A stretch of DNA of 64,000 bases. It comes from SAR86 cluster bacterium AG-313-N18. Its GTDB lineage: Bacteria > Pseudomonadota > Gammaproteobacteria > Magnimaribacterales > D2472. Positions 8,623-10,335 of this stretch are shown here, in pieces. How positions within the stretch are numbered: the first letter of the stretch is position 1; every line of letters begins with the position of its first letter. The position numbers were made by a program, and so were the translations under genes. Location of the stretch: NCBI GenBank assembly GCA_003283765.1, contig QBVY01000003.1:12183-76182 (forward strand), given 5' to 3'. Under the pieces are notes generated by a model. It had not been told where the DNA came from. It was given only the letters and a program-made list of their open reading frames with translations, and did not search any database.

Positions 8623-10335
8623 TTATGAAACGAATTGTATGATACTTTTAGCCGCTTCTCTTCCTTCCCAAATCGCTGTAACAACTAAATCTGACCCTCT
8701 AACCATGTCACCGCCAGAGAAGATCTTTGGATTAGAAGTTTGAAATTTTAATTCTTGTTTTTCCGGTGCTATCACCAAGCCTGATTTATCGGTTTGAATT
8801 CTAAAATCTTTAAACCAATTTGCTGGATTGGCTCTAAATCCAAAAGCAATAACAACTTCATCAGCAGGAAAGATTTTTTCACTGCCTTGAATGGGGACAG
8901 GCACTCTTCTCCCATTTTGATCTGGCTCTCCTAATTTCGTTTGTATTGTTTTGATACCTTGAACGCTATCGCTTCCAAGAATCTCAATGGGCTGAATATT
9001 AAATTCAAATTGAACGCCTTCCTCTTTAGCGTTAATAACCTCTCTTCTGGAGCCAGGCATATTTTTTTCATCTCTTCTATACAAACATGTAACAGATTTT
9101 GCTCCTTGTCTTATAGCAGTTCTATTGCAATCCATTGCAGTATCTCCACCTCCTAAAATTACAACATCCTTGCCTTTAAAATTAATATAGTCAGACTCTT
9201 TTTGTTGAAATTTTAAAAGATGATTTGTATTGCCAATAAGGTAATCAATTGCTTTATGTGCTTGCGGAAGATTCTCTCCCTTAAAACCACCTTCAAGCGA
9301 AGTATAGGTTCCCATGCCTAAAAATATTGCATCGTATTTCTTATTCAATTGCTTAAAGGAAATATCCTTTCCAATCTCTTGATTAAGATGAAACTTGATA
9401 CCCATTTCTTCAAGAATCTTTCTTCGTCGTCGCACAACACTCTTTTCTAGCTTAAATTCTGGAATTCCAAATGTGAGCAAGCCGCCAATCTCTGGATGCT
9501 TATCATACACATCACAATTAATTCCAGCTCTAATCAGAATATCTGCACATCCGATTCCTGCTGGACCTGCTCCAATGATTGCAACTTTTTTATCAGTCCA
9601 GGTTCTATTACTTAGATCTGGCTTCCATCCCATATCTATTGCTTTATCGGTAATATATTTTTCAATGTTACCTATGCTTACAGCACCAAAACCATCATTC
9701 AGTGTGCAAGCACCTTCGCATAAACGATCCTGCGGACAAACTCTTCCACACATTTCTGGAAGAGAATTTGTTTGATGGCATAAATCAGCTGCCTCCATGA
9801 TGTTTCCATCATTAACCAGTTTTAGCCAATCTGGGATGTAGTTGTGCACTGGACATTTCCATTCACAATAAGGATTTCCACAATCTAGACATCGATGTGA
9901 TTGATTGGATGCCTCGGATTGATTGTAATCACCATAAATCTCTACAAAATTAATTTTTCTTTCTTCTATATTTTTTTTATTAGGATCATAGCGGCCAACT
10001 TCAAGAAATTGAAAATCATTTTCAAGTGGTACATGCTCTACATACTCTGACCTTGATTTAAAGTTTTCTGGAGAGGGGATAGTGGATGTCGGGATTGTGC
10101 TTTGACTTAAAAGCTCCTTACGCCATTCAAATAACATAACCTTTGCATCTTCTAATTCTGTAATTGGGGCAAATGATTTAGTTACATATTTTCTGTTTAA
10201 TCTAATTTTTCCATAAAAGTAAGGAGACCGCGGTTGGGTAAAGAGCAATAAACCTTTTTCAATTTTGTATTGTTTATTTTTTGCTCTCATTAAATTGTAG
10301 TAGTTCTGCGTGGTATGTATGACATAGTATGACAT
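8623..10335 (-). CDS. gltD: Glutamate synthase small subunit (NADPH) with an in-frame ~100-aa N-terminal extension; true start uncertain
   Basis: The GltD core begins near [11 protein letters not shown]. It has Fe-S Cys motifs ([30 protein letters not shown]) and a [10 protein letters not shown] dinucleotide fold. The ORF stays open for ~100 further codons upstream, which is unlikely by chance in AT-rich DNA. An alternative internal Met (aa 67) would start at 10137. Confidence 0.85.

Follow-up and report, generated by a model that had tools for sequence, protein, structure and literature searches.

It is already known that an enzyme may repress its own gene through a DNA-binding domain that it carries, as in PutA, and that integrases may autorepress by way of their arm-type sites. 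PutA is described (PMC5293562) as a trifunctional flavoenzyme in which a ribbon-helix-helix domain at the N-terminus is joined to PRODH and P5CDH domains, and which serves as the autogenous repressor of the put regulon. Experiments on intS of the Escherichia coli prophage KplE1/CPS-53 have shown that the integrase acts as repressor of its own gene, whose promoter is overlapped by arm-type sites (Panis et al. 2010, PMC2951348); the same autorepression is predicted for 61.5% of tRNA-linked integrases (PMC2951348). SroF is described (bioRxiv 10.1101/2025.11.27.690993) as an integrase-fold phage repressor. Here we describe, within a stretch of 64,000 nucleotides from SAR86 cluster bacterium AG-313-N18 (contig QBVY01000003.1, positions 12,183 to 76,182; hereafter ‘the window’), a gltD gene for the small subunit of glutamate synthase whose product begins with an integrase-type module, and which sits next to a short, highly conserved tandem repeat; we propose that this enzyme probably controls its own gene.

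Canonical GltD starts at its enzyme core and is co-transcribed after gltB, the gene for the large subunit. AP2/ERF DNA-binding domains, known from plants and apicomplexans, are related to the DNA-binding domains of integrases and homing endonucleases. An earlier note on this DNA had drawn attention to an open frame of around 100 codons above GltD, likened it to the Arm-type (DUF4102-like) domain of integrases, and offered two explanations; either a genuine fusion, or the fossil of a recombinase gene at a rearrangement junction.

Results

An integrase-type module precedes the GltD core

The open reading frame (ORF) listing of the window gives gltD as a minus-strand ORF of 570 amino acids (8623..10335). 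The GltD family model TIGR01318 matches residues 108-569, covering model positions 1-465 of 467 (748.2 bits, cut-off 482.95), with Fer4_20 and pyridine-nucleotide oxidoreductase (Pyr_redox_2) domains found from residue 127 onwards in a Pfam scan. This leaves 107 in-frame codons ahead of the core, as the earlier note had suggested; by our own calculation, a stop-free run of this length has a chance of ~5e-4 at the composition of the window (A 0.31, T 0.32). The peptide and the Ser/Thr/Pro stretch that were quoted at the time match the window translation exactly. The ‘head’ of SAR86 GltD is part of a single polypeptide, formed of a basic module of 63 residues, a flexible linker and a normal GltD.

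Profile comparisons establish the module as homologous to the N-terminal domain of tyrosine integrases encoded next to tRNA genes. An exhaustive profile search across 1.84 billion representative proteins returned only 38 matches and, beyond fragments of GltD, these comprised PetA fusions and an integrase of 392 amino acids (P0131), the latter matched over the whole module with an E-value of 1.8e-7. Relatives of P0131 are ~385 amino acids long and carry Phage_integrase and SAM-like domains, with the phrog_1 ‘integrase’ family matching from residue ~17-19 to the C-terminus; in P0232 the module occupies approximately residues 10-70 and Phage_int_SAM_3 residues 109-130, whilst in P0206 and P0200 Phage_integrase lies at 220-363. 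As the SAM-like and catalytic parts follow the module in these homologues, it sits in the arm-binding position of a three-domain tyrosine integrase. A tblastn search with P0131 found nothing in phages and, in plasmids, only integrases of 23-26% identity. The window itself holds one copy of the module and no recombinase catalytic or core-binding domain. Taken together, we consider the integrase origin of the module, and its fusion to GltD, to be well supported.

A profile built from 136 modules aligns weakly, using hhalign, to a three-sequence profile of E. coli IntS, IntA and IntB (score 19.5, P 1e-3, probability 8.7%), a score that none of 200 column-shuffled controls attains (mean 3.2, maximum 15.5); the register of the module on Arm-DNA-bind_3 is the one given in the earlier note. 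The Arm-type resemblance holds as homology to an integrase N-terminal domain (E 1.8e-7); a link to DUF4102 in particular rests on this weak profile alignment.

An AlphaFold2 model calculated with 31 sequences (pLDDT 89.7) has strands at 7-11, 14-18, 25-31 and 34-39, with a helix following at 46-62; modelled independently, a distant integrase-type subfamily yields the same topology of four strands and a helix (pLDDT ~90). The first 40 residues of the module include 11 Lys/Arg and a single Glu, for a net charge of ~+10. Precomputed Pfam annotation is empty over the module region of the database matches, a profile search of Protein Data Bank (PDB) sequences with the module gave no match at E<=10, and fold searches (Foldseek) with both models gave no significant match to a DNA-binding fold. 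The AP2 tandem repeat of Plasmodium SIP2 (PDB 6sy0) appears in both Foldseek PDB lists, with a query-normalised TM-score of 0.34-0.56 and an E-value of ~1, which is not significant.

The module is kept in frame and selected as protein

A species scan, with one genome per species, identified 117 module-encoding loci, from which 80 were fetched for comparison; all carry the label SAR86 or unclassified Gammaproteobacteria/Proteobacteria. In every one of the 80 genomes the module shares an ORF with the CGNPYC motif of GltD, these ORFs spanning 550-625 codons, with one running off its contig. A word-seeded search with residues 1-107 retrieved 118 proteins of 52-99% identity, all from marine metagenomes or SAR86 genomes, many of which continue into the Fer4_20 domain of GltD; at the nucleotide level, the 6 kb around gltD are 88-89% identical to SAR86 single-cell and metagenome-assembled genomes.

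Averaged over pairs of sequences, the module differs by 0.217/0.110/0.490 at codon positions 1/2/3 and the body of GltD by 0.193/0.096/0.488, such that third positions vary as they do in the enzyme. By the Nei-Gojobori method, applied to 56 unsaturated pairs, the ratio of non-synonymous to synonymous divergence (dN/dS) is 0.045 for the module (0.014 in its N-terminal half), 0.014-0.047 for the GltD body and 0.166 for the linker, with dS similar across all three. Purifying selection acts as strongly on the module as on the enzyme body and, given this ratio and the even dS, selection as a protein is sufficient, with no need for an additional constraint at the level of DNA. The Ser/Thr/Pro-rich linker is variable, at 23-29 residues with codon-position divergences of 0.55/0.48/0.59, but is always in frame and free of stops. 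Orthologue alignment and codon periodicity, two of the comparisons that had been suggested for deciding whether the extension is genuine, both speak for it, and the linker stands as described.

A stand-alone small protein made of the module, which would have argued, Rosetta-stone fashion, for a function of its own, was considered and rejected, the short proteins in the database being contig ends or assembly frameshifts. Two long-read, pilon-polished assemblies (L001 and L088) contain frameshifts that split nearly every gene, including gltB, gltD, hemE, aroB and petA, and assemblies of this type account for many of the short module-only entries. In one single-cell genome (L089, 3240-3330) a PetA-type module stops early and resembles a separate gene of 94 amino acids; relative to its fused relatives it has a deletion of 1 nt in an A-run (AAAGAAAAAGTAAAT against AAAGAAAAATAAAT), and sequencing error, or else a rare frameshift, probably accounts for the split.

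Translation starts at M16

Gene callers disagree on the start of gltD, and some of the resulting products include a non-coding upstream stretch (MSY...). Relatives begin at M-x-x-KNKQY, and in 18/80 genomes a stop codon lies 2-7 codons before KNKQY; on these comparative grounds, the true start in the window is the ATG at 10290-10288 (M16), and 10291-10335 is non-coding. Outside of the repeat this stretch is not conserved among relatives, and ‘MSY...’ recurs in database proteins because the mechanically assigned ATG at 10335 is part of the conserved repeat. The earlier note had placed the extension at 10036-10335, beginning from M1 of the ORF; the extension is there, but its limits shift at both ends, since the linker runs to 10015 and the first 15 codons drop out.

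An internal start near 10137 or later is disfavoured. The Met at 10137 is confined to the subclade of the window, 16 of the 80 genomes have no ATG, GTG or TTG anywhere from the middle of the helix to the GltD core, and no internal start codon is conserved among the 80.

The same module heads integrases, PetA and an IOR-like enzyme

A scan of metagenomes added 43 PetA fusions (260-273 amino acids), nine fusions to an indolepyruvate:ferredoxin-oxidoreductase (IOR)-like enzyme and ~30 integrases. The integrases (L083-L087, L090, L091, L093-L117, L124, L133) are ~385 amino acids in length and are encoded directly after tRNA genes, ~85-100 nt past the tRNA 3' end (tRNA-Phe in L084), their neighbours being either a resolvase or small ORFs without annotation, of the kind usual in islands or prophages. 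In PetA, the Rieske iron-sulfur protein, the module precedes the twin-arginine signal anchor, in an rplM-rpsI-petABC context (L082, L088, L120-L171). The IOR-like fusion places it on a protein of >570 amino acids with LTGTQALVRLP... and CAGCPHN motifs (L118, L121-L123, L125, L128, L130, L131, L141), a label given on visual inspection of its sequence. GltD, PetA and the IOR-like enzyme, the three fusion partners, are all iron-sulfur redox proteins. The contigs with PetA, IOR-like and integrase carriers have cluster labels that read only ‘Gammaproteobacteria bacterium’. In a further locus (L104:1500-3258), an integrase-type module and part of a SAM-like domain run into an unrelated ORF of >580 amino acids, which may be a chimeric assembly or another fusion.

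Short repeats upstream of the module co-vary with its subfamily

The gltD-gltB intergenic region contains an 18-nt repeat, TGTCATAC-TA-TGTCATAC on the gltD strand, which reads as two copies of GTATGACAT on the plus strand. When 81 SAR86 genomes are aligned on it, nearly all 18 positions hold ~2 bits, against 0.2-1 bit in the flanks; it is present once per 6-kb locus in relatives and once in the window.

Each subfamily of the module has its own repeats of 8-10 nt just before the start codon, all belonging to a common site family, nnnnnACAnn, in which five variable bases are followed by ACA (Table 1). TGTCATAC occurs in 81/81 GltD loci and in no other class of carrier, whilst TGTTCAAA occurs in 43/43 PetA loci. 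The integrase sites of 9-10 nt form triplets in direct-direct-inverted order; the PetA palindrome ends 1 nt before the ATG, with a second such pair just after rpsI, and across the integrase, PetA and IOR loci the proximal site lies 1-4 nt from the ATG. PetA modules are 60-66% identical to the integrase modules that have GAACA sites and IOR modules 63-65% identical to those that have ATACACAGT sites; the GltD modules are more distant, at 41-44% identity to integrase modules. The captured PetA and IOR modules therefore keep the site of their nearest integrase relatives. It is this co-variation of motif with module subfamily that forms our main argument for the module recognising the repeats.

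By our own reading, the integrase loci also have a TATA(G/C)T -10-like hexamer at the point where the spacer meets the inverted copy and a -35-like hexamer within the first direct copy, with a leader of only a few nt. As the -35-like element, spacer and -10-like element fall within them, the three integrase sites appear to cover the int promoter.

In the gltB-gltD region the sequence permits more than one promoter assignment. The repeat can be read, again by eye, as two TGnCATACT extended -10-like elements. On the gltB strand, a sigma-70-type match (ATGACA-16-TATAAT, 10329-10356 (+), 11/12) takes the second repeat copy as its -35; the -10 falls within the opening codons of the longer gltB ORF, 3 nt before ATG 10360, and we do not rely on this match because that is too close to the gltB ATG. 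An Rfam search of 9800-10600 gave chance-level matches only, so no known RNA element explains the conservation of the repeat.

Gene order at the gltB-gltD junction

Between 7591 and 16385 the window has the order aroK(-), aroB(-), gltB(+), gltD(-), hemE(-), which is also seen in L001. A single nt separates the stop codons of aroB (14810) and gltB (14808), and hemE, probably co-transcribed with gltD, directly adjoins the gltD stop codon (8622 against 8623). In Pseudomonas these five genes are co-directional, and for that reason the SAR86 order is best explained by gltB having been inverted, which would have cut gltD from its operon promoter. The module and repeat sit exactly at the gltB-gltD junction. 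As to the choice between fusion and recombinase fossil, the derivation from a recombinase and the position at a junction both hold, but the dN/dS of 0.045 does not fit a dead remnant.

Table 1. Features around gltD in the window, and sites found upstream of each class of module carrier (site rows are written in the forward sense)
Feature	Position	Strand	Sequence	Remarks
Tandem direct repeat, 10-nt period	10317..10334	-	2 x TGTCATAC	Predicted operator / former arm-type site, between gltB and gltD
First 15 codons of mechanical ORF	10291..10335	-		Non-coding leader/promoter region containing the repeat
Integrase-derived N-terminal module	10102..10290	-	MRAKNKQYK...RKELLSQ	aa 16-78, 63 aa
Ser/Thr/Pro-rich linker	10015..10101	-		Variable, aa 79-107
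GltD proper (glutamate synthase small subunit)	8623..10014	-		Stop codon included; TIGR01318, Fer4_20, Pyr_redox_2
gltB (large subunit)	10348..14808	+		Start ATG 10348 or 10360; ORF listing; divergent gltB kept in relatives
hemE	7591..8622	-		ORF listing; URO-D also after GltD in relative L001
GltD sites			GTATGACAT twice	
Integrase sites			ATACACACAT, ATGAACAC/GTT, TTGAACAGT, TGTACACAGT, GTGCACAGT or TTTACACCA	Two direct and one inverted copy; sequence by subfamily
PetA sites			TTTGAACA-N9-11-TGTTCAAA	
IOR-like sites			ATACACAGT twice, ACTGTGTAT	

Discussion

Synthesising these observations, we favour, with moderate confidence, a model in which an integrase cassette, made up of arm sites and an arm-binding domain, was captured at the junction of the gltB inversion, such that GltD would now repress its own promoter. 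An ancestor of SAR86 may have acquired, in frame with gltD, the 5' end of an int gene with its sites, promoter, start codon and arm-binding domain, at the junction that the inversion had left and at which gltD had lost its operon promoter. The cassette would then drive transcription of gltD-hemE, and GltD, by means of its tethered module, would occupy the tandem repeat and so limit that transcription; occupancy might also limit the divergent gltB, whose promoter region would overlap the repeat. We propose that the cassette is an autorepressed int promoter captured along with its repressor domain, because the layout of the integrase sites resembles that of intS. We also speculate that assembly of GltD with GltB, or the redox state of GltD, could govern DNA binding; a dependence of this sort would serve to balance subunit stoichiometry in a genome with few regulators.

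Several observations weigh against this model. Its central step, binding of the module to the upstream repeats, is one that we infer, and conservation of the repeat could stem from promoter function alone. The gltD site departs from the integrase pattern, in that both of its copies are direct and an inverted one is lacking, and it lies anywhere from 3 to 35 nt ahead of the ATG; the single 8-mer is also not enriched elsewhere in the window (four found, 2.6 expected). With respect to the domain itself, residues 1-107 match no Pfam family at E<=10, including Arm-DNA-bind_3 (DUF4102, PF13356), for which the positive controls IntS, IntA and IntB score 73-89 bits, so that the DUF4102 assignment fails by direct search; NCBIfam and PHROGs likewise hold no credible match to the extension. 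DUF6538 (PF20172, gathering threshold 27 bits) is found below threshold in 16/22 integrase- or PetA-type modules, with a best E-value of 0.0028, and does not match the module of the window. Finally, the PetA, IOR-like and integrase contigs have no genes in common with the SAR86 loci compared, and their assignment to a SAR86 host failed.

The alternative that survives best, though we think it unlikely, is that the captured int 5' end donated no more than a promoter and start codon, with the module being kept for a role at the level of the protein (GltB assembly, oligomerisation, stability or localisation) and the repeat being a promoter or the site of another regulator. The likeness of the repeat to two extended -10 elements, and the ATGACA -35-like hexamers that it carries for gltB, would fit this; the absence of significant matches to a DNA-binding fold is also in its favour, and the restriction of the fusion partners to iron-sulfur redox proteins could hint at a shared protein-level role. 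Saying this, neither a generic promoter nor a host regulator would be expected to have motif variants that track subfamilies of the module, and 18 nt at ~2 bits per position is far above the usual conservation of promoters; the strong positive charge of the first 40 residues (~+10), and the arm-binding position that the homologues fill in integrases, also count against it.

It is more doubtful still that translation, instead of transcription, is what the module controls, through binding to the 5' leader of its own mRNA. In the integrase, PetA and IOR loci the proximal site, 1-4 nt ahead of the ATG, does occupy the position of a ribosome-binding site, and the inverted copy could pair with it as a hairpin. 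At gltD, however, the repeats are direct only, and no hairpin is possible; furthermore, as we read the promoters, the transcription start falls downstream of most of the site, no Rfam family matches the region, and arm-binding domains are DNA binders (PMC2951348). That the extension is an inert in-frame fossil, or an artefact of ORF calling with an internal GltD start near 10137 or later, is scarcely credible, for although no curated hidden Markov model matches it and the database holds many short ‘stand-alone’ module proteins, these are contig ends or frameshifts in long-read and single-cell assemblies, the module is in frame in 80/80 genomes with a dN/dS of 0.045 and third positions that vary as in the enzyme body, Met 10137 is specific to a subclade, and 16/80 genomes have no start codon between helix and core.

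Returning to the model of a captured, autorepressing cassette, the recurrence of the module allows a wider and more tentative proposal; that a portable integrase cassette was captured at least three separate times in marine gammaproteobacteria, by gltD, petA and the gene for the IOR-like enzyme, each time making an iron-sulfur redox enzyme the repressor of its own gene. In SAR86 this would have followed the gltB inversion, and would link transcription of the glutamate synthase genes to how much GltD is present, and perhaps also to the assembly or redox state of GltD.

Full-text literature searches found no earlier description of this fusion; the paper on a SAR86 isolate names the glutamate synthase genes only as present, and reports a second route of ammonium assimilation, via glutamate dehydrogenase, in some SAR86 families (PMC11582366). 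The apparent novelty lies in the proposed use of an integrase arm-type domain, along with its sites, as the regulatory ‘head’ of housekeeping enzymes, and the presence of this module on GltD in all 80 of the SAR86 species genomes fetched, with recurrence on PetA and an oxidoreductase. Few bacterial groups of the surface ocean are as abundant as SAR86, for which the glutamine synthetase-glutamate synthase (GS-GOGAT) pathway is one route of ammonium assimilation; the proposal bears on how streamlined genomes with few transcription factors regulate nitrogen assimilation. If correct, it would add a new trigger enzyme to central nitrogen metabolism, and a clear bacterial case in which a DNA-recognition module from a mobile element, together with its sites, has been reused for housekeeping regulation. 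That PetA and the oxidoreductase bear the module too would suggest a general, reusable mechanism and, should multiple capture hold, a route, not described before, by which streamlined genomes could assemble regulation out of pieces of mobile elements. With a 63-residue domain and an 18-nt site defined, and a cultured SAR86 isolate, HIMB1674, in existence, the prediction is directly testable. There is also a point for annotation, in that the GltD-type module is invisible to Pfam and variable start calls add non-coding residues to some of the products.

How, then, does the SAR86 arrangement compare with the systems described to date? Relative to canonical GltD (E. coli, 472 amino acids), residues 108-570 of the window protein match the whole family model, with the same Fer4_20 and FAD/NAD(P) domains; the differences are the added module and linker, and the divergent orientation of gltB. 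The module is predicted to share with the N-domain of lambda Int, the P4-IntS-type Arm-DNA-bind_3 and DUF6538 the form of a small, basic domain of ~60 residues in which β-strands are followed by one helix; like them, its homologues lie N-terminal to SAM-like core-binding and catalytic domains, and its integrase homologues have short repeated sites beside the int gene, next to a tRNA. Unlike them, the GltD module is carried by a metabolic enzyme and not a recombinase, and falls below all Pfam thresholds.

The parallel with intS lies in the order of elements at the module-bearing integrases, where the tRNA 3' end, the repeated sites and the int start codon follow one another; gltD differs in having no integrase catalytic part, with the predicted repressor domain carried by the regulated enzyme itself, and no gene for a recombination directionality factor is seen next to it. 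In PutA, as predicted for GltD, a flavoenzyme acts at its own control region through a small N-terminal DNA-binding domain, and the put control region lies between divergent genes, as with gltB/gltD. However, the PutA domain has the ribbon-helix-helix fold where the GltD module is predicted to have an integrase-type β-sheet and helix, and the switch has been shown experimentally for PutA, whereas for GltD both binding and switch are predicted. With AP2/ERF domains and SroF, finally, the module has in common the reuse of recombinase DNA-recognition parts for the control of transcription; those are stand-alone regulators, whilst the SAR86-type module is borne by housekeeping enzymes, and its sites appear to have moved along with it.

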